Origin: a virus
Lineage: Duplodnaviria; Heunggongvirae; Uroviricota; Caudoviricetes
Virus record (IMG/VR): IMGVR_UViG_3300046779_001955
Location: 10,116 to 74,115 of that record
DNA length: 64,000 nt
Strand: one strand, 5' to 3'
Shown here: in pieces, positions 3,720-59,629 of the stretch
Layout: each line of letters starts with the position of its first letter
Numbering within the stretch: position 1 is the stretch's first letter
Translations under genes and position numbers: made by a program
The notes under the pieces: model-generated
What the model was told of the DNA's origin: nothing
Seen by the model: only the letters and a program-made list of their open reading frames with translations
Databases searched by the model: none

Positions 3720-4867
3720 AGAAGTTTTGCCAGTGTGCTTAGATAATTTCCTGTGTTCTTTTGAGCACTTAATAAGTCAAGTAAATCAGGATTTTGTCTA
3801 GCAATAAGTTTTTTACTAATTGCCGAATTCAACATTTGATCAATTTGATCTTTCCATGGCAACATTAAAAATTGTTTTAGAATGTTGATATCTCTCAATG
3901 GCGTAAAGGTCAAGGTGTTGCCAAGATGCCAGTGTTGGTGATCATTAGCAGCACATTCTAAAATGTGTTTGCGTAATGCCATAATATCAGATACCGGATG
4001 ATCTACTTGGCTTTGATACTTTTTCTGATTGTCTTCAATCATAAAGTACTCCCGATGCAGATAATTTTGATTTTTCAGCAGCTGATTTATTGAAGTACCA
4101 TGATGCATTGCCAACAAGTTTCCCATCTCAGGATTGCGCAAGGTAAATTCGTCTCCAGGGCATCCACTTACCAAAACAGTGGGCTTGATCCAATGGTGCA
4201 TTTGTTTGTAAGCCCAGTGATTAGATACTATAGTGTGATGATTACATACCCAAAAACGATCAAATTCAAGGTGTTCAGCTAATACTACTTCGTGTGGTAT
4301 TTCTAGTTTTTGTAAGTAACCCAACATCAAAGTAGTGTCAATACCACCACTCAGAAATATTTTTACTGGAAGATTATTGTAACTAAAAAAGTAATCAAAT
4401 TTTTCTGTTAGTATCTCATCAACATATTCAATCACCTCATCAACAGTTCTCTCTTGGGTTGGTACCTCAGTGATAACGTCAACACCGTCAGTTTTGAATG
4501 TAAGATCCTTGTTTAAAGTCAGTAAACTATCGGCAAAAATCTTTCGACTGAGTGGACAAAGATTTGTTACACCAAAGTTAGGATCATACCACAGTGGAAA
4601 ACTTCGGTACAAACTATGACGAACTTGAGCAGTTTCGTCAGATAAAATTATAATACAGTAGTTTCCACTTCGTGTAACATTGTTGTCAACAATATTGTAA
4701 ATTTCTAGATCAAGATCACCGTGATCAAGATACCCTTTGTAAGCTATAGTTTCTCGATTATGCTCAAGTATATTCCAACCTTGATCCATGTCAAGATGCC
4801 AACCGCGATGGTAATGTCCGTTGACACTAAAATTTAACTTTGGTGATCTGCTAATTGAAAAAAACAT
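3716..4867 (-). CDS. asparagine synthetase-like PP-loop ATP pyrophosphatase (amide/lactam synthetase-like), no N-terminal Cys nucleophile
   Basis: SGGIDTT PP-loop motif mid-protein (~res 172) as in AsnB C-domain; N-domain lacks Cys2; 4-nt overlap with radical SAM gene. Confidence 0.7.
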   Translation of the reverse strand: MFFSISRSPKLNFSVNGHYHRGWHLDMDQGWNILEHNRETIAYKGYLDHGDLDLEIYNIVDNNVTRSGNYCIIILSDETAQVRHSLYRSFPLWYDPNFGVTNLCPLSRKIFADSLLTLNKDLTFKTDGVDVITEVPTQERTVDEVIEYVDEILTEKFDYFFSYNNLPVKIFLSGGIDTTLMLGYLQKLEIPHEVVLAEHLEFDRFWVCNHHTIVSNHWAYKQMHHWIKPTVLVSGCPGDEFTLRNPEMGNLLAMHHGTSINQLLKNQNYLHREYFMIEDNQKKYQSQVDHPVSDIMALRKHILECAANDHQHWHLGNTLTFTPLRDINILKQFLMLPWKDQIDQMLNSAISKKLIARQNPDLLDLLSAQKNTGNYLSTLAKLL

Positions 4868-5454
4868 TATTGTCTCTTGTTTATGACTTTATCTGCTAGT
4901 CCGTATGCCACAGCATCTTCGGCGGTCATGAAATTGTCTCGTTCCATATCCTTTTCAAGTTCACTATAATCCTTACCAGTGTGCGTAGCGTAGATATCAG
5001 TCAAAACTTTTTTCCAACGCAGCAATTCTCGTGCTTGAATTTCAACGTCAGTTGCTTGCCCTGATGCACCACCTAGGGGTTGATGAATCATGTGTCGAGC
5101 ATTGGGTAGAATGAACCTGTGTCCGTGTGCCCCGGCCATTGCCAGTAAAGAACCCATGCTGGCTGCTTGGCCCAACACAATAGTATGTATCGGACAACGC
5201 ACAAATTGCATAGTATCATAGATACTCATACCTGCTGTGACACTGCCGCCCGGTGAGTTAATGTAAAAATTAATGGGCTTGTCAGGATCTTCGCTTTCTA
5301 GGAATAGCATTTGAGCTACGATCAGGCTAGCTGAGTGACTTGAAACTTCGGTATCTAGCATGATTACACGGTCCTTTAGCAGCCTAGAATAGATATCATA
5401 GCTGCGCTCGCCCTTGGAAGTGTGCTCGATTACTATGGGAACCAGGTTTGGCAT
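4867..5454 (-). CDS. clpP: ATP-dependent Clp protease proteolytic subunit ClpP
   Basis: [23 protein letters not shown] motifs; start at ATG 5454 with AAGGAG SD (ORF-track start 5511 is an upstream extension). Confidence 0.95.
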
Positions 5455-5482
5455 TACGTCTCCTTGTTTAGATAAGTAAAGT

Positions 5483-5511
5483 ATTATAACATAACATCCA
5501 ATGATACGCAA
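5483..5511 (-). promoter_or_regulatory. candidate promoter for clpP (TTGCGT-17-TATAAT)
   Basis: revcomp TTGCGTatcattggatgttatgtTATAAT upstream of clpP SD. Confidence 0.4.
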
Positions 5512-7069
5512 GATTCTTGATCAACTCAGCTTTTTAACTGAAAGTACTGGTTTAGCCAATCGCAAACCCGGTGATGTTTTTGCCGATCCTGAAGGCAACG
5601 AGATACGTTTTCAAAGTATTGATTTCTTTCCCCCTGGTGGTGGCAAATATCAAACATCTGAAGAAACACAGAAAGCCATTGACATTGCAATCAAATCTAT
5701 TGGCGTAACACCAATAGAAACAAATTGGTTTCGTGGGTCAACTCGATCATTTGGCATAGCACAATTCCAAGATGCACAAGGGAATCCCTTGGCATTTATT
5801 AGATATTTTGACAAAGAACTTAGTGCTGATCCTAGAGGTAACTATTGGGATAATCAAGGGGGTATACCAGGCTATCGCTATCAGGGCAAAGCTGCTGTAA
5901 AAACTCAGAGCAACGCCACGCCCCAGGATATTTTGACTCAACTAGATGATCTAACTCCTGCAGATATTTTGCGTCAAGTCGAAGAAAAGTTCCCAGGTAG
6001 TAATTTGGTAACAGTTACACAGCATTTGGTGTCAGGTGGTGAGTTACCATTTACTTTTATGCGGCCGCAAGAGATGGATATCTCGGCATTTCAAGATTAT
6101 TTTTGTGAGCTATTACAACCAATCGCGCTACAAACCGGACAGTTTGAAGGTGAAGCTGCGGCTGCTGCATTGGCATTTTTGCCTGATGGAGGTTTTTCTG
6201 ATACTACTATTAACTTCAGTACCAGTAAGACCGAAGGACTCAGTGATTCTATAATGACTGCTCCCGATGGCAGATCAATCAAAGTCAGTAGCAAGGGAGG
6301 TAAAGGTGCACCAGCTTCAGTGGTCAACATTCTCAATGCCTATGACGAATTACAACGCACAGCCAACGGACGCAAATTAACTAAAAAACTAATCAACACA
6401 GTTGAAATTCTCAACACAATCAAAAACACAGGCCAGGCTGAAGGTCCGTTGGTGTTGGCACAACAGTTTGGTATAATCACAGAAAAAGACGCAGAATTTA
6501 TTCGAGCACTCAAGCAAGTAAGACCTTTGCCCTTGGACTCTTTCAAAGATGTCAGTATCAGAGGTAAACAACCTTCTAAAAACCTTGTAAAACTAGCCAA
6601 GGAACGCAACACTAAAGAACCCATGCAGGTAAACTTCTTTTACCATCTCATGGCCAGTGTTGCTTTCAAGGTAGCTGACTATGTCAACAACAAAACTGAT
6701 TTCGGCAAAGATACTGCTGTTATTCTCAACAACAGTGCCTTGATCCAAGTCTACACCAAAGTAACAGCCCGTGGACAACAATGGACATTGCAAAAGTTTG
6801 GTAGTAAGTGGCCTGGATCTATATTCAGTCCCATTGCACTTGATCCTTCCAAGTCATATTACAGCACAGGAATCAAACAAAAATTTACTTTTGATATGAA
6901 GCCTAGAAAGAAATCTTTAGATGATCCACAATCAGCTCATGCTGATATATCTGATCCTGACACTGAATTCAAACGCAGCAAAGTAAAAGCAGCGCAACCT
7001 GAATCACCGCTGGGTAGTGAAAAAACTCTAGGACGTCGCAGACGTCAACGTGCAAATACTGATACATGA
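5501..7069 (+). CDS. hypothetical 522-aa protein (plus strand, between the two clpP paralogs)
   Basis: long uninterrupted ORF; Arg-rich C-terminal tail RRRRQR; no recognised motif. Confidence 0.6.
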
Positions 7070-7611
7070 TCAGTGATATTAAATTTCTGTGCTTCTTCGG
7101 CGCTGAGCCAAATATCTTGCGGTGGTAGCAAATACGTGCGTATATCATCTTCGCTCATACCAGTACACTGTTGATAGTGATTAAGCATCCTGGTCTGTGT
7201 TAGATCAAATTCTTTGATCCTTGCAAATAATTCGTGTGCCTTGCCATCACTTTCCCAAGTAAACTGATGGCTCAATATTGATGTGTTAGGAGTTAAAACT
7301 CTACGTCCTGGTGCACCCGATATAAAGATCAGCAGTGCTGCCGAAGCAATTTGTCCCAGGCCAACTGTTTTAATTGGGGTCGGTGAACTCATCATTACAT
7401 CAATAAGAGCAAAGGCCGCGCTCATGTCACCACCCTCGCTACATATCATCAACAGTAATTCTTTCTTCTTTCGTCGTGTTACATAATTAGATTGAAGAAT
7501 CCATTCAATAACTGGTTTAACACTGTCTATGGTGATTTCTCCCATGAGAAGAAACATTCCCGAATCATTTATCGAAGACACTGCTACTTCATCATCTTTT
7601 TCTGCTGTCAT
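7045..7611 (-). CDS. ClpP-family protease paralog (ClpP2-like), catalytic triad apparently intact
   Basis: SEGG, GQIASAA (Ser), LSHQF (His), Asp near C-term aligned to ClpP triad. Confidence 0.8.
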   Translation of the reverse strand: MTAEKDDEVAVSSINDSGMFLLMGEITIDSVKPVIEWILQSNYVTRRKKKELLLMICSEGGDMSAAFALIDVMMSSPTPIKTVGLGQIASAALLIFISGAPGRRVLTPNTSILSHQFTWESDGKAHELFARIKEFDLTQTRMLNHYQQCTGMSEDDIRTYLLPPQDIWLSAEEAQKFNITDHVSVFAR

Positions 7612-7627
7612 GTAATCTCCGTGAAAA

Positions 7628-7666
7628 AGCCCAAGTACATTATAACATGTAACTTGGGCTTTGCAA
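7628..7666 (-). promoter_or_regulatory. hairpin (8-bp stem, 16-nt loop) plus T-run overlapping a TTGCAA-16-TATAAT promoter
   Basis: minus strand GCCCAAGT...ACTTGGGC TTTTT after lipoprotein gene; loop carries TATAAT; upstream of clpP2-like. Confidence 0.4.
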
Positions 7667-7679
7667 CTAGATTTGGTTA

Positions 7680-8273
7680 TTATTCAGCTGCGCGATTGGC
7701 GTTGGCATCCAATTCTTTGGTGACATCAGCAGCACGAATTTCGGTGGCTTTACGAGCACGAATTCCATCTTTACGTGCTTGTAATTTATTAGCATCGCCC
7801 ATGGGCAAAGCCACCAAAACATAACTACGGAAACGAGTACCCTCGGCAATGGTTCGAGTGTCTACGATCTCAACACCAGTTACATCAACCTGTGGACACA
7901 TTGAACGAATTGCAGTTTCACTGAGTTCGCTGCCACCGCTTTCATTGTCCATCATAAAGACTTTACTTTGCTGATCAACCTTGCCGCCTGCTGACATACA
8001 AATTTTGCCCATTGCCATGAGTTTGGCTTTGGTACGAGCCATCTCCATGTCACGACTTACTGAAGTGCCGTTTGCATAAACTGCACTGTCTGAACTAGGT
8101 ACTTTCTCCATCCATGCCGGAGCCTTGTCAATAGCACGTTCAGCATACTTAACCTGGCGCTCGCGTTCAGCATCAGCACGTTTTTCAAACTTGTCATTGG
8201 TTGTACTACAAGCTGACAAAGTTGCGGCAACTGCTGCAACAAAAACCAATCGATTCAACATTTTATACCTCAT
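7680..8273 (-). CDS. lipoprotein (LPP20-like?)
   Basis: signal peptide with lipobox LSAC; 197 aa. Confidence 0.7.
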   Translation of the reverse strand: MRYKMLNRLVFVAAVAATLSACSTTNDKFEKRADAERERQVKYAERAIDKAPAWMEKVPSSDSAVYANGTSVSRDMEMARTKAKLMAMGKICMSAGGKVDQQSKVFMMDNESGGSELSETAIRSMCPQVDVTGVEIVDTRTIAEGTRFRSYVLVALPMGDANKLQARKDGIRARKATEIRAADVTKELDANANRAAE

Positions 8274-8395
8274 TATTTAGAAGAAATCCAATCGCCAACA
8301 CGACCTAAGTCTTTGCCAGCACCACTAATTGTACCACCTATTGTGCCACAGGCTGCTAGGCTTGTAACTAATAGGGCCAAAACTACAATACGCAT
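8273..8395 (-). CDS. small entericidin-like lipoprotein (40 aa), absent from ORF track
   Basis: MRIVVLALLVTSLAACGTIGGTISGAGKDLGRVGDWISSK; lipobox LAAC; G-x-G-x-D-x-G-R/N pattern like EcnA/B; TAATG overlap with downstream gene. Confidence 0.55.
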   Translation of the reverse strand: MRIVVLALLVTSLAACGTIGGTISGAGKDLGRVGDWISSK

Positions 8396-8419
8396 AAGAC
8401 CTCCATTGTACACGATAAA

Positions 8420-8986
8420 TTAAAAACGGTCAACCACTACCCATTCATTGGCATTGAGTTCGCATACAACACCTTGATATTGGCGCAGATGATCTCGATC
8501 CCAAGCTGGTTCCAGGAACCAACGACATTGCACACCGTTGTGCCAAAAACGATCAGGATAATTTGGATGGGGTCTAAATTGACTAGACTTACCAATCATA
8601 CCCGGCGATGTTTTTTTAATCATGTCAGCATCGGGATTGTCTGAGCATATCATTACTGAATCAGTAACAATTTGTTTTTTGCTCACACGATCGCGTACAT
8701 CGCGTTCGGCTTGCTGCACAGCCTGCGCACACATTTCGGTGCTGGGACGATTGCCATCCCATGTAACTTCACCGTGAGCCGGATGCCACTCGTTATTGAT
8801 TCGAGCACGAAACTCCACTGTACATTTCTTGCCACCGTTGACATCAGGTACTACCGCACGTCTCAAGTCGGCTCGTTCTTGGATGGTTACCTGTGTTCGA
8901 CTCACTGTTTTATCTTGCAAAACACAGTCAGCAGCACTGGCAGAAAGTGCAACCACACTCAGCAATGTTAGATATTTTACGGACAT
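8420..8986 (-). CDS. secreted/periplasmic protein
   Basis: signal peptide (ALSASAADC); 188 aa; several Cys. Confidence 0.6.
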   Translation of the reverse strand: MSVKYLTLLSVVALSASAADCVLQDKTVSRTQVTIQERADLRRAVVPDVNGGKKCTVEFRARINNEWHPAHGEVTWDGNRPSTEMCAQAVQQAERDVRDRVSKKQIVTDSVMICSDNPDADMIKKTSPGMIGKSSQFRPHPNYPDRFWHNGVQCRWFLEPAWDRDHLRQYQGVVCELNANEWVVVDRF

Positions 8987-9324
8987 TCTCTAAGTTCCAT
9001 TAACAGTTGATCAATAAGCCAATTGGTACGTCCACTACTGGATTCGATACGTCGATAATAGTGTTCACCGTCAGTAAACTGTTCCCATGGACGAGTCAGG
9101 TTAGTAAACTTTGCAAACAACATATCGTCAGCACTCATTTTCATTTGTTGCAACATTGCTACTTGTTGCTTTTTGATTTTGCAATTGACTCTAAAAGTGT
9201 CTAAATCGTAAATAGCCATTGGTTCTCGAATCGGAGCACCTGCACAACCCACAAGATTACTAGCGATTGCAATTATAGCGAAGATGCCACATACGAGCTT
9301 TGTACTGACCTTTGCGCTGTTCAT
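8977..9324 (-). CDS. lipoprotein
   Basis: signal peptide plus lipobox LVGC. Confidence 0.6.
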   Translation of the reverse strand: MNSAKVSTKLVCGIFAIIAIASNLVGCAGAPIREPMAIYDLDTFRVNCKIKKQQVAMLQQMKMSADDMLFAKFTNLTRPWEQFTDGEHYYRRIESSSGRTNWLIDQLLMELRECP

Positions 9325-9499
9325 ATTGCTCCTTGGATTCTAGTTTGTATTGAGCTTCATTTGCATAGTGTTCAAGGTATCGTGCCAACTGTTGTTGATT
9401 CAGACAATCATTTGGAACCAATGCAGTGTCCAAAGGCGGAGAAATACTTGGTGTCACGCAGCCTGCCAACGGCAGGCAGGCAATTAAAAGCCATCGCAT
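9260..9499 (-). CDS. lipoprotein
   Basis: internal start MRWLLIACLPLAGC (lipobox LAGC); ORF-track N-terminal extension to 9601 doubtful. Confidence 0.5.
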   Translation of the reverse strand: MRWLLIACLPLAGCVTPSISPPLDTALVPNDCLNQQQLARYLEHYANEAQYKLESKEQYEQRKGQYKARMWHLRYNCNR

Positions 9500-9675
9500 T
9501 CTTGACCTCGCTTGTTGTGTTTGTCCTGACGTTGATATGCACGACGGTTCCGTTCTACGTGCCCACGGAACGGGGTATTGGCCCCATAGAGCTCTACACA
9601 ACGACGTCGTTGCCGCGGTACTCTAAACTGTATATTTTGTGTTTTCATAATTGAAAATCCCAGTTAATGTACACA

Positions 9676-9704
9676 ATTATACACAAACTGGGATTATTGG
9701 TCAA
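9676..9704 (-). promoter_or_regulatory. sigma70-like promoter TTGACC-17-TATAAT
   Basis: revcomp TTGACCaataatcccagtttgtgTATAAT upstream of lipoprotein cluster. Confidence 0.6.
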
Positions 9705-9713
9705 TGGTTGCTT

Positions 9714-9926
9714 TTATACTAACGAATTGTGATTTTTGTAAGTGTATTCTCGTATCCAATGCTCAATGTCAGCTGGGCTTTTGGCACCTTTGAGAACTAG
9801 GTACTTCTCGAGGTCTGTCTGTGACCGACTATCTAACCATTCCCGTACACGTTCTTGGGCACGTTCCATCATTTCTCGGAGGCTAGCAGACATGATAAAT
9901 CGTTCTCCGAAGATAAGTCTCAGCAC
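9714..9926 (-). CDS. hypothetical protein
   Basis: 70-aa ORF; start uncertain. Confidence 0.4.
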   Translation of the reverse strand: MLRLIFGERFIMSASLREMMERAQERVREWLDSRSQTDLEKYLVLKGAKSPADIEHWIREYTYKNHNSLV

Positions 9927-9989
9927 GTCGTTGTCGTGCTTTGATCATTGACTCTATTAGAGAATCAACCAATTTTTTTATTTGACTCA

Positions 9990-10233
9990 TTATGTCTTGA
10001 CCTTGGCTTCTTTGGCCGCTGGCACCACTACCTGTTTCAATGATTCAGTGTAGGCTGTCCACGCATCATTTTGGGCACGAGCAAATTCAAAGCTGGCTTT
10101 GTGCACCACTTCAGCTGCTGAACGAACTTGTTCAGGCAAATAGGTAAGTGCAGTTTTTGCAGTTTTTTCCACTGAGTCAATGACTTCAGAAGCTTTGATT
10201 ATTTGAGTTGAATAAAATTTAGTAAAGTCCATT
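9990..10233 (-). CDS. hypothetical helical protein
   Basis: start at MDFTKFY with AAGGAG SD; Ala/Lys-rich helices (phasin-like look). Confidence 0.5.
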
Positions 10234-10309
10234 TTGGTCTCCTTGTAGTAAGCGAGCAAATCGAACAGCCCGACCTTTCGGCAATGTTCTTTGTTCAACT
10301 TTATTTAGC

Positions 10310-10338
10310 ATTATATTGTGCGTTGCAACAAAAATCAA
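10310..10338 (-). promoter_or_regulatory. candidate promoter TTGATT-17-TATAAT
   Basis: revcomp TTGATTtttgttgcaacgcacaaTATAAT. Confidence 0.45.
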
Positions 10339-10396
10339 GTATTTCTTTCGCCTTTTGTTACGGGATTAAATAATACATTGATTAAGGAGATTTGCA

Positions 10397-10663
10397 ATGG
10401 AACTTTTTATTTTATTGCTAGTGGTAATTGGAGCAGTTTGGTGGTTTACTTCGGTTGAGAACAAAGCAGAAGAATCGGGTCGTCATCCCTTGGATGGTAA
10501 TGTAACTAGACAAGAACCTGACTTAACCACAATACCTGATGGGATTGGTCATCAATCAATTACAGTTGCTCCGGTACTTACACAACAATTGGACGTACCT
10601 GCAACAGAATCAACTGCACCCAAAAAATCACGTAAACCTCGCGCTAAGAAATCAGCGGAGTAA
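10397..10663 (+). CDS. small membrane protein
   Basis: AAGGAG SD 7 nt upstream; N-terminal TM helix; basic C-terminus. Confidence 0.6.
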   Translation: MELFILLLVVIGAVWWFTSVENKAEESGRHPLDGNVTRQEPDLTTIPDGIGHQSITVAPVLTQQLDVPATESTAPKKSRKPRAKKSAE

Positions 10664-11674
10664 TTCTACAACTTGGTCTCGGGCAAGATTTTTGCCCTTG
10701 GCCTCACACTGTATATCCCACTGCTCTGCAAAGGTCAGAGCATATTCATTAACAGCCGAGTTCCAATAAAAGTCCGAGTGTGCTCGTAGCTTGCTCCGAG
10801 TGAAGCCTCTTGAAAGCAGTTGCTCAAGATTGGGTCTAGTACAGGGATCGTGATCCACCAAAAGATCTTCACGACTAACGCTGTAGTGAAGCACAGGGCG
10901 AACACCGCGCCAACTGTCCAAAACACGCTGCGCACGATCATCATCAGGAGTGATGTATTCTCCTGTTTTGACCCAGTGATGATGTATATCCAATGTAATT
11001 GGAACACGATGAATAACACCCAAAACAACATCAAGTCCATTTGTAATTTCATCATTCTCTATAGCGATTAGATTTCTAGCTTCGGGGGTCAATCTATCCA
11101 AAGTTTTTAGAAATTTGTCAGGCCCGCCTTTGCCTGACAAGTGTATGTTAATTTTAAATCCATGATCATGCCACTCAGCACCATAGCCCATCCATCGTGC
11201 AAGATCAACATGGTACTCAAACTCATCAATGCTGCGTTCAACAATATCATCGCTTTCACTTGCAAGAACACAGAACTGACCGGGATGGAAACTCAGACGA
11301 ACACCTAGTCTACGAGCAGCTTCGCCAACAGGTGCAAAAATTCGAGCACAATGATTTTGCACATCACTTTGCTGCCACCATTGTTGCCAGTCCTTTTCAG
11401 TGTAACCGTTGAGCATTTCTGAACCAAGACGAACCATGCGCTGAGTCTCAGGCAATGTGCCCACATGCTCTACCAGTGCTAATGCTGCTGCGGCATTATG
11501 GTTCATGATTTCAAACTGTCGTTGCTCGGCTTCGTCGCGATGCTCACGCAACCAGCGCATAGTAGTTGAACGTCCGTTCATGTGACGACTAGCCGACGTG
11601 GGTTTACGGCCAGCTACTTCTTCGGGATGATCTAGCCATTTGCAGCAAAAACCAATTTTAGTAGTGATAGGCAT
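10652..11674 (-). CDS. uvsE: UV damage endonuclease UvdE/UvsE
   Basis: SFHPGQF, NIHLSG, IENDE, DIHHHW blocks match the UvsE TIM-barrel family. Confidence 0.85.
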   Translation of the reverse strand: MPITTKIGFCCKWLDHPEEVAGRKPTSASRHMNGRSTTMRWLREHRDEAEQRQFEIMNHNAAAALALVEHVGTLPETQRMVRLGSEMLNGYTEKDWQQWWQQSDVQNHCARIFAPVGEAARRLGVRLSFHPGQFCVLASESDDIVERSIDEFEYHVDLARWMGYGAEWHDHGFKINIHLSGKGGPDKFLKTLDRLTPEARNLIAIENDEITNGLDVVLGVIHRVPITLDIHHHWVKTGEYITPDDDRAQRVLDSWRGVRPVLHYSVSREDLLVDHDPCTRPNLEQLLSRGFTRSKLRAHSDFYWNSAVNEYALTFAEQWDIQCEAKGKNLARDQVVELLR

Positions 11675-12098: not shown

Positions 12099-12128
12099 AT
12101 AGTCAAAAAAAAATCAACAACTTAGCAA

Positions 12129-12157
12129 GTATAAGTTATTGATTTTTTAAGGCCAAC
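12129..12157 (-). promoter_or_regulatory. candidate promoter TTGGCC-17-TATACT
   Basis: revcomp TTGGCCttaaaaaatcaataactTATACT. Confidence 0.45.
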
Positions 12158-12172
12158 TGGAATTTTACCGAA

Positions 12173-14833: not shown

Positions 14834-14897
14834 AAACAATCCTTTGTTGAAAACATTAATTATCAGTGAAAACTGATGGTCTATAAATAATTTTAAC

Positions 14898-16074: not shown

Positions 16075-17281
16075 TACCTTTGCGACCTAGATCCAGCGTA
16101 TGACAGTGGGTACCAGCGTCCCAGAAGAACTGATGTCTACTGGGTATTACGTGACATGTAATGCCATAGCGTTCCATTGCACGTATGACATTGTCATCAT
16201 GTTGTGCGACCACAGCAGTCTTGGGATCAATCATTAGTATGTTCACAAAGAAACGTGTTTCCAATGCATTACCTGTCCAACTACGTAGATAACTATCAAC
16301 AAAATCTGTGAGTGCAGCCGTGCGTTCTTGTCCTCGTAAATACCAACGTCCAAATCCCCACTGTCTGATCTTTCGCCATCCTTCGCTTTCAACAAGATAA
16401 CTGTTGTCACTACCATAAATTATCTCCCATCCGGGAAAACTCTTTTCATAGTTTGTTCGATCATGGTAGCTGACAATAAGGCCCGGAGCAACCGGACAAA
16501 ATGTGCCATCACTGTGTCCTCCACAATCAATAATGTTAGATCTATATTGAGTTCCAGCAATTTGCTGACTTATGGCAGTGAGCTCAGGAGTTATTTCATC
16601 ATAACTTTCGGTACTGAAATACAGATCTCTCCCAAGTCTAGTGACCATACTACCGTTGACCAAACGCCAGTGATCACTGATGTCAACTATCTGGTTTCCT
16701 TGTTCTATAACCCATTCATAGATACCATTGTAAACTCCACCGGGATTAGTTGATCTTGGTTCCATGGTATACCAAGTTTCATTGCGCCAGTGCAGATATT
16801 GACATTGATTTATTAGAATTTCTTGGATATGTTTGGGGAGTTCTTTGAAACTACTTTCGCGTGAGCAATCTGGCCATCCAGGTTGACGAACGTCTTGATA
16901 AAACTGGCCCCAGCCTGGCCATTCTTCATAATGATCAGCGTAGACCATTGAATCTTGTGTGCGATTTATATAAAATAAATCTCCAATCATTACATGTGCG
17001 TCTCTAGGACACACCGGCGGCCTTGGGTACTCTTTAACTGTTTTGGATTCTATTGATTCTGCAATTTTATGCCAGTCACTGACATTGGGCCTAAATACTC
17101 TTACTCCACGTGATTCAATAAATTGTGCTAACGCATCAAGATCTTCCTGCGTTTCAACAACTATTTTTTCCAATAAGTTTCGCAGTTTGGTATCTTGTAC
17201 GTAGGAGAAAAATTCAGGTGGCCAACAACTCCCGACTACACAAGCTTGAAGTGGATCCCAATGTTGGTAAATTTGTAGCAT
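16019..17281 (-). CDS. amidinotransferase-superfamily enzyme paralog 2
   Basis: YQHWDPLQACVVGS and GTHCHTLDLGR motifs. Confidence 0.7.
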   Translation of the reverse strand: MLQIYQHWDPLQACVVGSCWPPEFFSYVQDTKLRNLLEKIVVETQEDLDALAQFIESRGVRVFRPNVSDWHKIAESIESKTVKEYPRPPVCPRDAHVMIGDLFYINRTQDSMVYADHYEEWPGWGQFYQDVRQPGWPDCSRESSFKELPKHIQEILINQCQYLHWRNETWYTMEPRSTNPGGVYNGIYEWVIEQGNQIVDISDHWRLVNGSMVTRLGRDLYFSTESYDEITPELTAISQQIAGTQYRSNIIDCGGHSDGTFCPVAPGLIVSYHDRTNYEKSFPGWEIIYGSDNSYLVESEGWRKIRQWGFGRWYLRGQERTAALTDFVDSYLRSWTGNALETRFFVNILMIDPKTAVVAQHDDNVIRAMERYGITCHVIPSRHQFFWDAGTHCHTLDLGRKGTMQDYFPGRDYASDANYE

Positions 17282-17283
17282 AG

Positions 17284-18537
17284 GTGATTATGTCAATTCC
17301 GTTAGAACAACTGTATGATTTTTATGACAGCATTATCTCTGATAACCTAATAATTTATCAGTTCTGGCCACATGGATCTAAAAACATCTTGGATTTAAAA
17401 CCTATACAAGCATACAGTTTGGAACAAGTGGTCACAGACCCAATTATGATTTGCCATGACCAAGAACCATTGCATTTTGATTTTTACACTTCAGACAAAA
17501 TATCTGGTCTATGGGCTCACGGAGCTGGCTCTGACTGGCCACCAGAGTTTGCAGAGTTTTGGGAAAGTCGTAATCTTAGATCTGCCTGTGAAGTAAACAT
17601 ACACGATCAATGCCTGTTGTTGCACAGTGAACAACGTAGTAAAAATTTAAACCAATATCAACAATCAGGCTTTGTTCCTGTATATGTCTGGAGTCACGGA
17701 ATTATTGCGAGAGACTGGTATAGATATGCAGAGATTGACCCGAGATTACAAACCCAGCACCAGTCAACTTATGATTTTAACATATATGCTCGAGCTTGGA
17801 CTGGTACAAGAGAATATAGACTGATGCTGTTGGCATTGACAGCGGATATATCGCATCATTGTCGTGTGACATTCGCAGCCAATGATGGTGGATCATATCA
17901 AAAATATCAACCCACTAATCCAAAGTTTTATATCAATCATTTTGATCTTGTAAATCTCTACAGTGACAGTTCGATTAGCAGTGACTCAAGTGCAACCTAC
18001 AATTGGCAGCATTATCAACAGTGTGCAATTGATGTTGTCACTGAAACTTTATTTGATGATGATCGAATGCACTTAACCGAAAAAGTGTTACGCCCCATTG
18101 CCTGTGGCAAACCATTTATCATAGCCGGTCCTTGGGGTAGCCTTGAATATCTAAGAACATATGGATTTGAAACGTTTGAGAGTTTGATAGATGAAACCTA
18201 TGACACTATAGAGAATCCGTATCAACGTCTACGTGCATTGACAGATCTAATGCGTCAGATTGCGAGAATGTCTGGTCACCACAAAAAACAACTGTATCAT
18301 GCCATGAACAACATAGCTCAAAGAAACCGCAGACACTTTTTCAGCACAGAATTTTTTCAACAGTTAATTGTTGAATACAGTGTTAATGCTAGAGATGGTC
18401 TTAGGCAAGTGTACGAAAGTTGTCAAGGCACTGAGTGGAACTCGCACATGTCTGTGTACAATCAATATCCCAACTTGCACAGTGAAATCTTAGATTTACA
18501 ATCAGTGGTGCTAGATAGACTCCACACGACAAGATAG
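17284..18537 (+). CDS. hypothetical 417-aa protein
   Basis: long ORF divergent from amidinotransferase 2, start codons 3 nt apart. Confidence 0.6.
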   Translation: MIMSIPLEQLYDFYDSIISDNLIIYQFWPHGSKNILDLKPIQAYSLEQVVTDPIMICHDQEPLHFDFYTSDKISGLWAHGAGSDWPPEFAEFWESRNLRSACEVNIHDQCLLLHSEQRSKNLNQYQQSGFVPVYVWSHGIIARDWYRYAEIDPRLQTQHQSTYDFNIYARAWTGTREYRLMLLALTADISHHCRVTFAANDGGSYQKYQPTNPKFYINHFDLVNLYSDSSISSDSSATYNWQHYQQCAIDVVTETLFDDDRMHLTEKVLRPIACGKPFIIAGPWGSLEYLRTYGFETFESLIDETYDTIENPYQRLRALTDLMRQIARMSGHHKKQLYHAMNNIAQRNRRHFFSTEFFQQLIVEYSVNARDGLRQVYESCQGTEWNSHMSVYNQYPNLHSEILDLQSVVLDRLHTTR

Positions 18538-18975
18538 AATTTCCAGTGTTTCTAAAATTACGTTCGCTGTTAGATCCACAACATATTCACCTGATCTAAA
18601 TTTATTGTCCAAAACTACAAAATCATCAGTTGTGGTATACCATTCGTTTAATATATGTAACAATTTGTTTTGACAATCAATATATCCATAGGTATAAATT
18701 TTGTGAAATTCTATCTTGTTGATGTCGGTTTTTTCTGGAACCCTAAACCATGTTACACTGTGCAATAATTTGAAATTGCTATTGCCCTTGAAGCTTTCTG
18801 AATGCGCGGCTAAACTCCACTTCACTGCTTCCCCAATCGGTGCCATTTGAGAAATATCAGCTAGTAATTGTTTACCATCAGTTGTATCGCGAAAATCAAA
18901 AGAGTAGCTTGATCCATCTACGGCCCATACAGCAGTAGATACCAACAGTATAAAAGATACAAATAGTTTTTTCAT
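18511..18975 (-). CDS. secreted protein
   Basis: cleavable signal peptide (LLVSTAVWAVDG). Confidence 0.55.
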   Translation of the reverse strand: MKKLFVSFILLVSTAVWAVDGSSYSFDFRDTTDGKQLLADISQMAPIGEAVKWSLAAHSESFKGNSNFKLLHSVTWFRVPEKTDINKIEFHKIYTYGYIDCQNKLLHILNEWYTTTDDFVVLDNKFRSGEYVVDLTANVILETLEILSCRVESI

Positions 18976-19112
18976 AGCGGTTCCTGTATTTGTACTTACA
19001 ATACAGAACTGAAAATTAAACCATGTGTATTATCCTCGGTGTGGGGGTGAAGGTGGCGGCCCTGGAGGTGTTGGTTTAGGCTTTCGATGATTGTACCAGC
19101 TCATATGTATCC

Positions 19113-19147
19113 CCAAAAAAAAGCCCCGTCGCCGGGGCAAAAAAATT
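19113..19147. terminator. bidirectional rho-independent terminator
   Basis: AAAAAAAA GCCCCG tcgc CGGGGC AAAAAAA; hairpin flanked by A/T runs on both strands. Confidence 0.7.
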
Positions 19148-19697
19148 AAATCCAAAGCCAAATACCTTGACTCATTAGTAATAATCCTAGAGCTGCTACT
19201 CCTATACTACTATAGAACATTGTCATTGATACTGCTAAGATACTTGCTGATAATAATACGATTGCAAGTTGATATGCTGTGCCTGCAAATGTCATCCAAG
19301 GACCATGACGTTTGGCCTGATCTCTGTCGGCTTCAAGATGCTGTGCTTTGGCCATAAGTTCTCGTTTGCCTTCGCCTTTTTCCGGATCGCTTTCGTAGCG
19401 TTCAATTTTGGCCCGCATTTTTTCTGCTTTGACCCGATCGCCGCGTTGAATAGCATCATCTAAGTTCTGTTCGGCCAGTGCTTGTTTAATTGATTTTGCT
19501 TGATAGAATGCCCATACGTTGTTTGCTGCAATGGTATTGTTGAGTACTTTGCTTGAAAATCCATTGGCCATGTAAGTATTAACCGCCAGCAGTAAGGCGA
19601 TGACTGTGATTACCCACCCTGCTTTGTCTTTGATTTTTGCTTCGGCTTCGCTGCGTGTTAGGACTTTGCCTGTGACTTTGTCGATCATTTGTTTCAT
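19146..19697 (-). CDS. membrane protein (1 TM + coiled coil + 2 TM)
   Basis: hydrophobic segments, charged coiled-coil middle. Confidence 0.6.
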   Translation of the reverse strand: MKQMIDKVTGKVLTRSEAEAKIKDKAGWVITVIALLLAVNTYMANGFSSKVLNNTIAANNVWAFYQAKSIKQALAEQNLDDAIQRGDRVKAEKMRAKIERYESDPEKGEGKRELMAKAQHLEADRDQAKRHGPWMTFAGTAYQLAIVLLSASILAVSMTMFYSSIGVAALGLLLMSQGIWLWI

Positions 19698-19725
19698 ACT
19701 TGTCCCTTTTCGTTATAGTTGATAT

Positions 19726-20508
19726 TTATCCGTCGATCTCACAATCAACCCACTTGAGGTTATTGTATTGATTATAAAACAGTGTGCCTTTTGGCAGCAA
19801 ACAACGACCTAACTCGGGTCGCATTTCTATACGTATTTGAACCACACTCCAAACCAACCAACACAAATACAGTATGGCTAGAGAAGTCAGACTCCAGCAC
19901 ATCACTTTGTATTTGATTCTTTTTTTACGTGCTGCTCGTGCGCGAGCTGCTGCGCGATCTCGCTGCATTTCAGCAGCGATTGCACCAGCCTGTTCAACAC
20001 CTACAATTTTCATCATGGCTTCAACTTCGGTCCACAGCGCACCTAGTTCTGGTGGTGATTGATACACCATGATCTCACGTAGTTCTGTTCCCATGGCGTC
20101 TAGCTGCTTTTTAAGTAGCACACGCTGCAGAGCACGTTTACCTATACTATCTTCGCCGTGATAGACTTCGGTTTTGCTACGGCGTTCTTCTTCTTCAAAG
20201 ATTGCATTGCATTTGTGAAGGTTATCAAAGTAAACTCCTAGCTGTTCTCCAATCTGTGTGTAGATATTAGTAGTATCACCACTCTGTTTGTTTAAGTTGA
20301 TGATGCGATTTTTTTCTTCAATGTATTGATTTTTTTCAGCAACAGTTGGGGGGTGATCTTTGTAAGCACGATGGAATTGATCATCAAGATCCTTGAGAAC
20401 ATCCTTGATGTCCCCAGCAGCACCTTTGATATCTTTATAAAGCTTACATCCTTCTTTGACGAGCTTTACTGCCCCGTTGGCCAAGGCAAACAGCGTTAGC
20501 GGATCCAC
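19726..20508 (-). CDS. hypothetical protein with C-terminal TM anchor
   Basis: 260 aa; Arg/Ala-rich stretch then hydrophobic helix. Confidence 0.6.
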   Translation of the reverse strand: MDPLTLFALANGAVKLVKEGCKLYKDIKGAAGDIKDVLKDLDDQFHRAYKDHPPTVAEKNQYIEEKNRIINLNKQSGDTTNIYTQIGEQLGVYFDNLHKCNAIFEEEERRSKTEVYHGEDSIGKRALQRVLLKKQLDAMGTELREIMVYQSPPELGALWTEVEAMMKIVGVEQAGAIAAEMQRDRAAARARAARKKRIKYKVMCWSLTSLAILYLCWLVWSVVQIRIEMRPELGRCLLPKGTLFYNQYNNLKWVDCEIDG

Positions 20509-20575
20509 AGCTTGCTCCTATTTTTGTTGTTTTAATAGCTGTAGATCTATTTAAGTGGATTGTTAAGAACTTTTC

Positions 20576-20935
20576 TTAGTTGTTTTTACGCAAAATACCG
20601 TCCCATTCAGGATCTGGCGCTTGATCCTTGAAACCTCGGATACGCTCATGTAAGATATCATAAAAACTATCAACTTTACCGCCCCATTGACCTTTGAGAC
20701 GAGTAATTCCTGACAGACACCCGTCCCAGTCTTGAGCTCGATATGCCTCCATGAGTTCGCGATGCCAAGACTGAAGTTTATCAACCACAGCAAGCTCTTG
20801 GAATGGAACATACTCAAGAACACAGTAAGCAGTGACTGGATTGTTTTGATTTGGTAATACCATAGTGTCAAGTTCTAGTACTATGTGTTTTTGCTCAAGT
20901 TCGGCTTTGGCAACGGGATCAAAAATTATGTGCAT
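20576..20935 (-). CDS. hypothetical protein
   Basis: 119-aa ORF. Confidence 0.5.
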   Translation of the reverse strand: MHIIFDPVAKAELEQKHIVLELDTMVLPNQNNPVTAYCVLEYVPFQELAVVDKLQSWHRELMEAYRAQDWDGCLSGITRLKGQWGGKVDSFYDILHERIRGFKDQAPDPEWDGILRKNN

Positions 20936-20959
20936 ATAAATTCCTTTTAAATATGTATC

Positions 20960-21742
20960 ATGCGTATTTCATTTGATTTAATTTCAGACTTACATATCGA
21001 AACCTGGGATAGTTTTGATTGGACTGGCCAAGCCACAAGTCCATTCTGTATTGTGGCCGGGGACGTTGCCAAAGATAGAACCATAGTTTTAGAAACCTTG
21101 GAACACCTGAACCAATGCTATCGTATGGTATTTTACATTGATGGCAACGATGAACACAAGTATTATATGGACGATGTTGGCCGAAGCTATCGAGAGTTAG
21201 CTGCCTCTATTGATGCCCTGGACAATGTTGTGTATCTACAAGACAATGTTGTTATCATGGACGGCATAGCTGTTATTGGCACCAATGGCTGGTGGGGGTT
21301 TGACTTTGATCCCAATATTGATATAAATCAAACCAAGTATTGGTGGGAAGAACAACAAGTTGATCCAACTAATGCTCGAATAGTTGAAGATCTCAGTAGA
21401 ACTGATGCTGCTTTTTTAATCAAAAGCATTCAAAGATTGCAGCGTCACCAAGATGTACGTCACATTGTTGTGGTAACTCACACCGTTCCAAGATATGATC
21501 TCATAAGCCATGATCTTCAACTTGAAGGAACCTATAGATTCAACTGTATGGGCAACAGTTTGATGGAACTGGCTCAACATGCTGATACAGAATCAAAACT
21601 ACACACTTGGTGTTTTGGACATTATCATAACTCAGTAGATAGATTCGTCAACGGTGTTAGATTTATCAACAACTGCCGCGGGCGTGGAGACACCGAGCAT
21701 AGTAACCCGGTGTATTATCCTAGACGTATTGAATTAGATTAG
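20960..21742 (+). CDS. calcineurin-like metallophosphoesterase
   Basis: DLHIE, GDV, GNDEH, GHYH metal-ligand motifs. Confidence 0.8.
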   Translation: MRISFDLISDLHIETWDSFDWTGQATSPFCIVAGDVAKDRTIVLETLEHLNQCYRMVFYIDGNDEHKYYMDDVGRSYRELAASIDALDNVVYLQDNVVIMDGIAVIGTNGWWGFDFDPNIDINQTKYWWEEQQVDPTNARIVEDLSRTDAAFLIKSIQRLQRHQDVRHIVVVTHTVPRYDLISHDLQLEGTYRFNCMGNSLMELAQHADTESKLHTWCFGHYHNSVDRFVNGVRFINNCRGRGDTEHSNPVYYPRRIELD

Positions 21743-22050
21743 GCTTCGGCTTCAATTTTAACTTGAAGCGGGTAGTTTTGAGTACGTGCGCTCACTGTGA
21801 CTTCAATGCCTTTTTGTTCGGCAAGTTCGTAAGGCAACACTGCCACAGTGGCCGAACCGGACTCGTGTATATCCATAGTGATATCATGAGCGGTAGTGGG
21901 AGTATAATCAAAGAACTCAACTAAGCTACCAATAACAAATTCCATGCTGGTTTGATTGTCATTGAGATAGATCACTTTGTACATTGGTGGTTCTTTGATG
22001 GCTGTTTGTAGTTTTGTACGTGATTCAACGAGTGCGTCAGATTGTGCCAT
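21739..22050 (-). CDS. clpS: ATP-dependent Clp protease adaptor ClpS
   Basis: PPMYKVIYLNDNQTSMEFVI matches ClpS core; ATG 22050 with AAGGAA SD preferred over TTG 22080. Confidence 0.8.
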   Translation of the reverse strand: MAQSDALVESRTKLQTAIKEPPMYKVIYLNDNQTSMEFVIGSLVEFFDYTPTTAHDITMDIHESGSATVAVLPYELAEQKGIEVTVSARTQNYPLQVKIEAEA

Positions 22051-22069
22051 TTTAGATTCCTTGATTTCT

Positions 22070-22088
22070 GGGAGGGACAAGCCCTCCC
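22070..22088. promoter_or_regulatory. GC hairpin GGGAGGG-acaag-CCCTCCC between hsp20 and clpS
   Basis: 7-bp GC stem; weak T-run so function unclear. Confidence 0.3.
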
Positions 22089-22104
22089 ATGTATTTACTT
22101 TAGA

Positions 22105-22545
22105 TTAGTTTGAGTAAGTGATTGCAATGCTCTTAGGCTTAATAACTTCAGGTAACTGACGCTCAAACCTTACAGTTAAAATACCATCGCGGCATACAGC
22201 ATCAACAACTTCAACATACTCACCCATGGTCCAGCTACGCATGAATTTACGATTACTGATTCCTTGATGCTTGTAGCTGTGTCCTTCGGGAAGCGCAGTA
22301 TCGCGCTTTTCACCAGTGATGATAACATCACCATCACGGGTAGCAACATCAATTTCACCTTGCGCAAAGCCAGCCACAGCAAGTTGTAGTTCAAAGGTAT
22401 TTTCGCCGGTTTCTACGATGTTGTAGGGAGGGTAGTTGTTATTGGCAGCATGATCAATTTGATTCATAATTCGATCAAATACGCGATCTACACCAATTGC
22501 ATTGCGGTAAAACGGGGTTAAATCAAAAGCAGTTACTTTAGTCAT
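22105..22545 (-). CDS. small heat-shock protein Hsp20 (IbpA-like)
   Basis: FDLTPFYRNAIGVDRVF ... GYPPYNI ... AVAGFA alpha-crystallin blocks; GAGGAG SD. Confidence 0.9.
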   Translation of the reverse strand: MTKVTAFDLTPFYRNAIGVDRVFDRIMNQIDHAANNNYPPYNIVETGENTFELQLAVAGFAQGEIDVATRDGDVIITGEKRDTALPEGHSYKHQGISNRKFMRSWTMGEYVEVVDAVCRDGILTVRFERQLPEVIKPKSIAITYSN

Positions 22546-22608
22546 GTCATTCTCCTCGTAAGCAAGTTGACTATTGTAGCCCGACCATCGGCACTACAAT
22601 ACTATTTA

Positions 22609-22884
22609 TTATACACTAGATCCAAAATTTGTTTTATTATTTAGGTCAACTACAAAGCGCCATCTTCGTGCGGTGTAACTTCGTGGGTTCCAAGTCACAG
22701 TAAAAAAGGTATAAAGATTATCACTCTCAAAACAGACTCTATGAAATAATTTGACTGTTTTGGATGTGTAAGGAATTCCATACTTCTCGCTCCAGGCCTT
22801 GAGTTCGGTTTCAATTATGTTTAGGGCAATTGCAACAGAACGCATGTGCTGGTCACGGGTGGGCAATGCGAACTCAATGTACAT
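22609..22884 (-). CDS. hypothetical protein
   Basis: ORF overlapping S21 stop; start uncertain. Confidence 0.35.
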   Translation of the reverse strand: MYIEFALPTRDQHMRSVAIALNIIETELKAWSEKYGIPYTSKTVKLFHRVCFESDNLYTFFTVTWNPRSYTARRWRFVVDLNNKTNFGSSV

Positions 22885-23105
22885 CAGTAGAATTGACGAG
22901 GTAATTGTTGGCTGTTGAGGTATTTCTTCCAACGAGCACGAGCAGAATTGCGCTTGATTTTTCTAGCTGTGGTAGGTTTAGTGTACTGTTGACGCTCCCG
23001 CAGATTTATCAACAGTTGCGATTCTGCAACTTTTTTCTTGAGTTTACGCAACGCTTTGTCAACATTGCCATCTTGACCCACATAAACTACTAAACCTCGA
23101 CGCAC
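22884..23105 (-). CDS. rpsU: ribosomal protein S21
   Basis: 73 aa, VDKALRKLKKKV ... RERQQYTKPT ... RKIKRNSARAR pattern. Confidence 0.85.
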   Translation of the reverse strand: MRRGLVVYVGQDGNVDKALRKLKKKVAESQLLINLRERQQYTKPTTARKIKRNSARARWKKYLNSQQLPRQFY

Positions 23106-24304
23106 TAGATGTTCTCCTTTGGTGTAGGGGTATTTACCTGGTCAAGATCAATTTCTACTAACTTTATTTCACGATCTTGATAGTGTTTTAGATTGTACAT
23201 GTGTGGCAACAAGATACGCTCTAATTCACTGTGCAAGCCCCGTGCTCCAGTTTTATTTGCTCGAGTTCTGCGAGCTATTTCTCTTAGACTTTCTGATGTA
23301 AATTTTAGTTCCACACTGTCTTGTTCAAACAACCATTGATACTGTGAAATGTAATTGTGTTTGATATCAGTGAGAATTGAAATTAATTGATCCTCATCTA
23401 GATCTGACAATGTGACCCAGCTCGGAAAGCGTCCCACAAACTCAGGAATCATACCAAACTTCATTAGATCATCAGGCACAACTTGACTTAGACTCACGGA
23501 TTCTCGTGAACCAACATCAGCGGCGAAGCCCATGGCAGTACCTTGTACACGATTCTTTACAATGGTGTTAAGCCCAACAAATGCTCCACCGGCAATAAAC
23601 AAGATATTGCGAGTGTTGATTTCAATCATTTCAAAGTTGGGATTTTTACGTCCAGCAACTGGGCTTACTCTACAGGTTGTACCTTCAACAATTTTTAGCA
23701 ATGCTTGCTGAACACCTTCTCCGGATACGTCTCTTGTGATAGATGCCGACTCACTCTTACGTGCAATTTTGTCTATTTCGTCAATAAACACAATTCCGCG
23801 TTCGGTTTTTTCAACATCACCGTTGGCAGCAATCAGTAGTCTAGATATCAATGTCTCGACATCATCGCCTACGTACCCAGCTTCGGTTATTGAAGTGGCA
23901 TCTGCAATGGCAAACGGAACATCAAGATAACGTGCCACAGTTCGTGCCAATAGAGTTTTGCCCGAACCTGTGGGACCAAGCATTAACACATTGGATTTTT
24001 CTATTTCTACGTCAGTGCTGGTATTGCTGATACGTTTGTAGTGATTGACAATTGACACTGCCAACATGATTTTGGCTTGATCTTGCCCAATGACATATTG
24101 ATCTAAAAAGTTTTTTATTTCAATGGGATCAAGCCTGCGTTGAATATCAACCTTGGGTGTTTCTACTGTGTCGTTTCCTAGCAGTTCTTGACATAGATCC
24201 ACACATTCATTGCAAATACCAACATGATCACCTACTATTAATTTTTTGACCTGATCCTTGTGCTTACCGCAAAAATTGCAGTGGTTAAATTGTTCTTGAG
24301 CCAC
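23105..24304 (-). CDS. clpX: ATP-dependent Clp protease ATPase subunit ClpX
   Basis: N-terminal C4 zinc finger (CNFCGK...CNEC), Walker A GPTGSGKT, ClpX-specific blocks. Confidence 0.95.
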   Translation of the reverse strand: MAQEQFNHCNFCGKHKDQVKKLIVGDHVGICNECVDLCQELLGNDTVETPKVDIQRRLDPIEIKNFLDQYVIGQDQAKIMLAVSIVNHYKRISNTSTDVEIEKSNVLMLGPTGSGKTLLARTVARYLDVPFAIADATSITEAGYVGDDVETLISRLLIAANGDVEKTERGIVFIDEIDKIARKSESASITRDVSGEGVQQALLKIVEGTTCRVSPVAGRKNPNFEMIEINTRNILFIAGGAFVGLNTIVKNRVQGTAMGFAADVGSRESVSLSQVVPDDLMKFGMIPEFVGRFPSWVTLSDLDEDQLISILTDIKHNYISQYQWLFEQDSVELKFTSESLREIARRTRANKTGARGLHSELERILLPHMYNLKHYQDREIKLVEIDLDQVNTPTPKENI

Positions 24305-56454: not shown

Positions 56455-56516
56455 AATTATTTAATAGAAATTTTATTGCAGTTAAATATCTGCCCAGGCA
56501 TTTATATAGGCACATT

Positions 56517-59619: not shown

Positions 59620-59629
59620 ATGAGACTTT

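Follow-up and report, generated by a model that had tools for sequence, protein, structure and literature searches.

Sets of Clp genes are already known from jumbo phages. Agrobacterium phage Atu_ph07, described in 2018, carries seven Clp-family genes, i.e., ClpX, ClpA, ClpB, ClpP, ClpS and two others (PMC6102473); AP-J-162, reported in 2024, has six Clp genes together with Hsp20 and DnaJ (PMC11242549); a survey of 224 jumbo phages treats ClpP, ClpS, ClpA and ClpX (PMC7824862), and the virions of phage G contain ClpXP (PMC12484599). It is also published that Clp and Hsp20 genes lie close to the gene for ribosomal protein bS21 (S21), given that Hsp20 and two Clp protease pVOGs rank with the most frequent neighbours of bS21 in phages (Chen et al., bioRxiv 10.1101/2021.10.11.463225). 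For the ClpP1P2 proteases of Listeria and mycobacteria, it was established that the unfoldase binds only the ring with an intact hydrophobic pocket (bioRxiv 10.1101/638692; PMC6889138). Here we analyse the Clp genes found in a stretch of 64,000 nucleotides of viral DNA, positions 10,116 to 74,115 of the IMG/VR record IMGVR_UViG_3300046779_001955 (hereafter, the window). These are clpX, clpS, clpP1 and a second ClpP-like gene, clpP2, accompanied by hsp20 and rpsU, which encodes bS21. In our view they probably, although far from certainly, constitute a vertically inherited phage proteostasis system, in which ClpX would act on an asymmetric ClpP1P2 core and ClpS would act with a ClpA-type unfoldase. 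The novelty that a preliminary description of this DNA saw in a jumbo-phage Clp set was overrated, since such sets had been published; two aspects seem modestly new, namely a phage-restricted, docking-blind family of ClpP2 proteins with a catalytic site that is predicted to be intact, and the conserved clpX-rpsU-hsp20-clpS(-clpP2-clpP1) cluster.

The six genes were borne out at the coordinates given in the table below, with family matches far beyond chance. ClpX passes two NCBIfam equivalog models, NF003745 (535 bits, cut-off 359) and TIGR00382 (505 bits, cut-off 371), contains the zinc finger domain defined in Pfam and is approx. 54% identical to ClpX proteins of solved structure. ClpP1, whose true start is the ATG at 5454 that follows the sequence AAGGAG, matches Pfam CLP_protease (E 5e-81, 271 bits) and NF001368 (311 bits, above the cut-off of 249), and is slightly short of the equivalog TIGR00493 (294 bits versus 308.6); over the aligned core it shares 62% identity with E. 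coli ClpP (phmmer E 2e-75). The functional motifs were checked in orthologues taken from the fetched loci of the phage clade to which the window belongs, which gave 73 distinct ClpX, 14 ClpP1 and 65 ClpS sequences. The four zinc-binding cysteines of ClpX, the Walker A lysine, the Walker B Asp-Glu pair and the GYVG pore-1 loop are invariant, and likewise Gly-Phe in the IGF loop and the arginine of sensor 2. The first residue of the IGF loop is Ile in 63 of the 73 sequences and Met in the other 10; the protein of the window has MGF at this site, as well as RKN in place of RKH. Equally invariant in ClpP1 are the catalytic triad Ser97-His122-Asp171 and Arg170, the N-terminal loop residues P4, E8, E14 and R15, and the pocket residues Y62, F82, I90 and L114, with Y60 being N or S. 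Between them, the predicted ClpX and ClpP1 proteins include every motif needed for a working ClpXP.

The product of clpP2 also matches Pfam CLP_protease (E 9e-27, 94.6 bits, gathering score 20.2), and it falls below every NCBIfam cut-off for ClpP (the best score is 86 versus 228). When aligned with ClpPs of solved structure, to which it is 25–30% identical, it has Ser, His and Asp at the positions of the triad, and all of 120 metagenome homologues share Ser97, His122, Asp171 and the oxyanion Gly68; the protein is also predicted to have the ClpP fold. A loss of catalytic residues was looked for and not seen, and the second ClpP does look active, as the preliminary description had claimed. The protein has no counterpart to the approx. 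20 N-terminal residues of mature ClpP that comprise the axial gating loops and helix A; the pocket positions Y60, Y62, F82, F112, L114 and L189 are occupied by L, M, S, V, T and S, respectively, with T114 invariant, and the position of Arg170, the ring-ring sensor, is Q or H. Without a pocket for ATPase docking and without the N-terminal loops, ClpP2 is not expected to be a second ClpX-docking ring.

The two clpP genes are linked in most relatives of the window. Locus counts were obtained from 51 IMG/VR loci for clpP2 and, for clpX, from those with enough flanking sequence, which amounted to 59 for the region downstream of it and 74 for the region upstream. In 46 of the 51 clpP2 loci, clpP1 is found downstream on the same strand at a distance of 22–3,623 bp; approx. 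1.6 kb is the commonest distance, and the 22–57 bp seen in three loci give the pair an operon-like look. ClpP1 and ClpP2 are co-encoded paralogues with asymmetric docking surfaces, the pocket being intact in ClpP1 only. An asymmetric ClpP1P2 core is favoured by the intact active site of ClpP2, its lack of a docking pocket and its linkage to a docking-competent paralogue. By analogy with the bacterial heteromers, a ClpP1 heptamer would receive the [I/M]GF loops of ClpX hexamers in its hydrophobic pockets, and a ClpP2 heptamer would be the opposite ring of the tetradecamer, as in Mycobacterium and Listeria; the resulting ClpX-ClpP1P2 protease would be single-headed and would have active sites of two kinds. 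The heteromeric ClpP1/P2 proposed in the preliminary description gains real support from the gene linkage.

Several points weigh against this proposal. The heteromer is a prediction from the genes, and the oligomeric behaviour of ClpP2 is not to be assumed because the ring-ring sensor is missing. In five of the 51 loci, the P0023 group included, no clpP1 lies within 10 kb of clpP2. Synechococcus phage BUCT-ZZ01 and Ralstonia phage RsoM2USA carry a ClpP2-like gene and no canonical ClpP match in their records, so ClpP2 can exist without a phage ClpP1. Finally, the partner of ClpS was found neither in the window nor in 1.6 Mb of clade loci. Part of this evidence serves a different explanation, according to which ClpP2 is not the partner of the phage ClpP1 and works as a lone, ungated, ATP-independent peptidase, or paired with a host ClpP ring, with the linkage of the genes reflecting shared regulation only. 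A protein that has no N-terminal gate, no pocket and no Arg sensor need not obey the assembly rules of ClpP, and in addition to the two phages and five loci just mentioned, marine contigs binned into metagenome-assembled genomes (MAGs) have no phage ClpP1 within 8 kb on either side. However, the same-strand linkage to clpP1 reaches 90% with gaps down to 22 bp, the handle helix of ClpP2 is kept, and subunits of obligate heteromers are among its closest matches in structure; we thus judge this explanation unlikely, although it deserves appreciable weight.

Another role to be considered for one or both ClpPs is that of head-maturation (prohead) protease, as for ClpP-like genes in many phages. It is true that both proteins belong to PHROGs families named 'head maturation protease', and that the ClpP of Atu_ph07 has this name in RefSeq; nevertheless, their scores with NF045542 (111.8 for ClpP1 and 52.4 for ClpP2) are below the cut-off of 120, and ClpP1 passes the cellular ClpP model. 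Moreover, ClpP1 has kept the N-terminal loops and the pocket for the IGF loop, which exist only for work with ClpX or ClpA, the clpP genes travel with clpX and clpS, and their neighbours are radical-SAM, lipoprotein-like and repair genes, with no portal, scaffold or capsid genes nearby. A role in head maturation is therefore very improbable.

ClpS aligns without gaps to its E. coli homologue and matches Pfam PF02617 (E 3e-23, 82 bits, gathering score 23), although it misses the NCBIfam equivalog cut-off (75.6 versus 149). The residues of the N-degron pocket, N34, D35, T38 and H66, are invariant in the 65 clade sequences, as are E79 and K84, the residues by which E. coli ClpS contacts the N-domain of ClpA; D36 is replaced by Asn in most clade members. 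The gatekeeper residue (M40 in E. coli) is Met in 43 of these sequences, Tyr in 18 and L, V or Q in 4, a variation that could reflect a different N-degron specificity among sublineages. ClpS serves ClpA- and ClpC-type unfoldases as an adaptor, and not ClpX. For this reason, when the preliminary description credited the phage with 'its own unfoldase and N-degron adaptor' as a unit, it joined parts that are not known to cooperate: the residues for ClpA contact are kept, and a hidden Markov model of 76 ClpA N-domains revealed neither ClpA nor its N-domain in the window or in the 1.6 Mb of clade loci. A tblastn search with E. coli ClpA, a query validated by its matches of 43–64% to annotated phage ClpA genes, yielded no partner either. 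When IMG/VR was scanned with an alignment of the Phosso and Atu_ph07 ClpA proteins, no contig of the clade was present among the best 80 contigs, the fraction of the matches that was listed; among the matches listed, the flanks of the ClpA loci led only to a distant relative (L137), in which ClpA is directly beside the DnaB-primase pair. The cultured phages that have ClpS, i.e., the PA5oct group, the group of Serratia phage BF and Yersinia phage fHe-Yen9-04, and Phosso, also carry a phage ClpA.

Three partners are conceivable for ClpS: the ClpA of the host, a ClpA that the phage encodes in another part of its genome and, with the lowest likelihood, ClpX. In the reading favoured here, ClpS does not serve ClpX and would most likely bind N-degron proteins and reprogramme a ClpA-type unfoldase, either that of the host or one encoded elsewhere in the approx. 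350 kb of the phage genome. Hsp20 would hold unfolded proteins and bS21 would enter host ribosomes, and all these components together would allow the phage to control how proteins are turned over, as well as their quality, in the course of a long and protein-heavy infection. A bolder idea, which we find improbable, is that ClpS switched partner and delivers N-degron substrates to the phage ClpX-ClpP1P2 or to the ungated face of ClpP2 in a ClpA-independent pathway; it is conceivable because clpS is always encoded with clpX, hsp20 and the clpP2-clpP1 pair and because no clpA was found. If true, this would be an N-degron pathway without ClpA, based on a ClpP paralogue that occurs only in phages.

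The set named in the preliminary description is not a single locus in the window; it is distributed in two modules approx. 14 kb apart, at 25884–21739 and 7611–4867. Within the first of these modules the order of the genes is strongly conserved, given that hsp20 and clpS are downstream of clpX in 59 of 59 loci and S21 follows clpX in 49 of them. Furthermore, in five distant relatives (L229, L234, L242, L251 and L259) the genes clpX-(S21)-hsp20-clpS-clpP2-clpP1 form one co-directional cluster of approx. 8 kb. The block of approx. 14 kb that lies between clpS and clpP2 in the window includes UvdE, UDP-glucose-dehydrogenase-like, DUF4337 and oxygenase-like genes; since the Clp genes are contiguous in the five distant relatives, this block seems to be a later insertion or rearrangement, and the window looks like the approx. 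8 kb cluster split in two.

The same genes, in the same order and with 52–85% identity, are present on hundreds of IMG/VR contigs of up to 352 kb. This conserved synteny is incompatible with a recent insertion of host origin and speaks for a joint action of the genes. A recent capture of the Clp genes from a host, or a contig of bacterial origin, had to be considered given that ClpP1 and ClpX are 54–62% identical to proteobacterial proteins and that better matches to ClpX or ClpP came in part from 'phage' records that are evident bacterial contamination. Such an origin is extremely improbable, because, apart from the synteny, all the functional motifs are invariant, the composition shows no anomaly, ClpP2 is absent from isolate genomes and the window is full of phage replication genes. 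The preliminary description had allowed for a recent host insertion with pseudogenes in the relatives; the genes turned out to be intact across hundreds of related contigs.

With regard to the source genome, the window encodes both subunits of ribonucleotide reductase, an ATP-dependent ligase, a DnaB helicase, a Toprim primase, a split alpha subunit of DNA polymerase III (Pol III), UvdE and several oxygenases, and its G+C content is 39–46% throughout. A scan for transfer RNA genes in the window found none. A megablast search of 20 kb against 50,697 phage records, cultured phages included, gave zero nucleotide matches; among cultured phages, two jumbo phages, Sinorhizobium phage Phosso (469 kb) and Atu_ph07 (490 kb), are closest at the protein level, and nearer relatives are found in IMG/VR, with 385 matches to ClpX and 492 to ClpP2. 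The phage replication genes, the jumbo-phage relatives at the protein level and the hundreds of relatives in IMG/VR indicate that the window is a piece of an uncultivated jumbo phage, which is a member of a large clade. Clear Shine-Dalgarno sequences (AAGGAG, GGAG, AAGGA) precede the starts of clpP1, clpP2, clpX, rpsU and clpS. The predicted hosts of the published lake phages with bS21 are Bacteroidota, which largely do without initiation led by Shine-Dalgarno sequences, and Bacteroidota account for 4 of the 9 MAG bins with ClpP2 contigs.

The ClpP2 family comprises 5,891 proteins at E < 1e-5. A search of 185,579 species genomes detected it only in nine MAG contigs, assigned to unrelated taxa that include Haliscomenobacter, Flavobacteriales, Chloroflexota, an Enterobacteriaceae MAG, Legionellales and an archaeon of a methanogen lineage (Methanobacteriota). 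This scatter is the signature of mis-binned phage DNA, and since in species genomes the family is confined to such contigs, we regard it as restricted to phages. Only three cultured phages have a member, namely Phosso, BUCT-ZZ01 and RsoM2USA. The copy of Phosso is wrongly annotated as 'ATPase domain-containing Clp family protein', and in all three cases the annotation could be corrected to ClpP-family serine peptidase. In the literature searched, the coverage of which was incomplete, no description of a phage ClpP1/ClpP2 pair or of a ClpP2-like family was found.

The clpX module begins with orf526, a homologue of which is upstream of clpX in 74 of 74 relatives. Its product matches Pfam DUF4407 weakly (E 0.002); N-terminal transmembrane segments are followed by a coiled coil and a further transmembrane segment, after which an acidic linker rich in Pro leads to a small domain at the C terminus. 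Tethered to the membrane, this protein might be either a partner or a substrate of ClpX. The stop codon of orf526 overlaps the start of clpX by 1 nt, and the stop of clpX overlaps the start of rpsU to the same extent, which suggests that the translation of these three genes may be coupled. The bS21 protein scores 48.9 bits with TIGR00030, above the cut-off of 28.95. Hsp20 has an alpha-crystallin domain according to Pfam HSP20 (PF00011, E 1e-15, 57.9 bits, gathering score 20.8), and its score with the NCBIfam IbpA model (105 bits) is below the equivalog cut-off of 212. The small open reading frame between S21 and hsp20 is not conserved, since in many relatives this gap is only approx. 90 nt long. 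In the gap between hsp20 and clpS, the stem-loop is directly 5' of the ribosome-binding site of clpS on the coding strand.

Around the clpP pair, the plus-strand open reading frame of 522 residues singled out in the preliminary description (orf522) is real and conserved. Its homologues are found only in phages and are 25–82% identical, versus 60–79% for ClpP2; throughout the clade it runs antisense to clpP2 (28 of 51 loci), and in one subclade it is directly upstream of clpP1 on the same strand. No match to orf522 was detected in Pfam, PHROGs or NCBIfam, nor by tblastn in cultured phages; a structure search gave only a weak fold match, and BFVD returned only uncharacterised phage proteins. There is a weak hint of a PD-(D/E)xK nuclease, for which E203, D249 and K261 would be the candidate residues. 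The suggestion that the protease feeds on this protein finds no support in these results, and the degradation of host defences, also raised in the preliminary description, is speculative. A gene of 511 residues that follows the ClpP2-like gene of BUCT-ZZ01 was examined as a homologue of orf522 and rejected (BLASTP E 0.31, hhalign probability 0.1%). Upstream of clpP2, orf197 has a homologue in most relatives and no family match in Pfam or PHROGs. In most relatives a radical-SAM homologue follows the clpP pair, and the radical-SAM gene may therefore be part of the same conserved neighbourhood.

Possible promoters of the clpP genes were also considered. The motif TGTTATAAT occurs only twice in the 64 kb, at 5483-5491 and 7639-7647 on the minus strand, in each case 30–40 nt before a clpP start codon; this count is not above chance, given that at least two copies were present in 31 of 100 shuffled sequences. 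The copy upstream of clpP2 lies within a long imperfect hairpin, in its loop, and the hairpin is followed by a TTTTT run; it is equally possible that this structure could be the terminator of orf197. Scans of the window for sigma-70 promoters and terminators showed no enrichment over shuffled sequences.

Table. Features of the Clp modules and their surroundings in the window, with the ClpP2-like genes of two cultured phages in the coordinates of their own records
Feature	Coordinates	Strand	Basis or remark
Radical-SAM protein	2658-3719	-	downstream of clpP1
383-aa protein, no family match	3716-4867	-	downstream of clpP1
clpP1, canonical ClpP proteolytic subunit	4867..5454	-	Pfam CLP_protease, NF001368
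TGTTATAAT, extended -10-like motif upstream of clpP1	5483..5491	-	consensus match
orf522, fast-evolving conserved hypothetical, between clpP2 and clpP1 on the opposite strand	5501..7069	+	577 homologues
clpP2-like, ClpP paralogue with intact triad and no ATPase docking features	7045..7611	-	Pfam CLP_protease
Promoter-like site TTGCAA-16-TGtTATAAT upstream of clpP2	7639..7666	-	consensus match only
orf197, lipoprotein-like, just upstream of clpP2	7680..8273	-	signal peptide and lipobox LSAC
clpS, N-degron adaptor of ClpA/ClpC-type unfoldases	21739..22050	-	Pfam ClpS
GC-rich perfect 8-bp stem-loop in the 54-nt hsp20-clpS gap	22069..22089	.	terminator-like scan, + strand match
hsp20, small heat-shock protein, IbpA/IbpB-like	22105..22545	-	Pfam HSP20
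Small open reading frame in the variable S21-hsp20 spacer, doubtful or lineage-specific	22609..22932	-	no Pfam/PHROG match
rpsU, ribosomal protein bS21, GTG start	22884..23105	-	TIGR00030, Pfam Ribosomal_S21
clpX, AAA+ unfoldase with N-terminal C4 zinc finger, GTG start	23105..24304	-	NCBIfam equivalogs
orf526, membrane and coiled-coil protein, first gene of the clpX module	24304..25884	-	weak DUF4407 match
Short Pol III alpha-like protein (618 aa), NTPase and finger domains only	56370-58226	+	replication module
DnaB-like helicase	58210-59697	-	replication module, beside the Pol III alpha-like gene
Toprim primase	60301-61284	-	replication module
ClpP2-like gene, Synechococcus phage BUCT-ZZ01 (L189)	4953-5519		annotated 'hypothetical protein'
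ClpP2-like gene, Ralstonia phage RsoM2USA (L190)	4959-5624		annotated 'hypothetical protein'

The practical gain from these observations is modest, and the general phenomenon was already in the literature. Their relevance is that a large and environmentally abundant clade of giant phages keeps a complete, motif-perfect ClpXP under purifying selection, which argues that the control of protein degradation belongs to the core of the infection programme and is not an occasional pick-up of host genes. The ClpP2 family, with its thousands of members, is a test case for the evolution of asymmetric ClpP cores and deserves a correct annotation.

Among the cultured phages, Phosso resembles the window in having ClpP (65% identity), a ClpP2-like protein (53%), ClpX (52%) and ClpS (44%); however, its Clp genes are scattered over the genome (at 30 kb, 115 kb, 381 kb and 398 kb) and it has a ClpA adjoining DnaJ. 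Atu_ph07, on the other hand, has no member of the ClpP2-like family. In general terms, the window differs from Atu_ph07, AP-J-162 and Phosso (Polybotosvirus-like, T4-related) in that its genes are arranged in conserved modules and no ClpA was found.

The comparison with bacteria shows likenesses and differences for both ClpS and the ClpP pair. As in the ClpS-ClpAP system of E. coli, the ClpS core, the N-degron pocket and the residues for ClpA contact are conserved. Bacterial clpS is normally followed by clpA, an order that is also seen in some IMG/VR loci; the clpS gene of this phage, in contrast, comes after clpX and hsp20 and before clpP2, and no ClpA was found near it. The ClpP1P2 proteases of Mycobacterium, Listeria and Chlamydia share with the phage pair the presence of two ClpP paralogues with Ser, His and Asp, a pocket for the IGF loop on only one of them, clpP genes that are adjacent or nearly so, and an unfoldase that is expected on one face. 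Nevertheless, the phage ClpP2 is the orthologue of no bacterial paralogue, and the N-terminal loop region and the Arg170 sensor are missing from it. With respect to bS21, in the five clades of freshwater phages described by Chen et al. this gene is found in the structural module and antisense to it, whereas in the window it appears to be translationally coupled to clpX, as part of a putative proteostasis operon.

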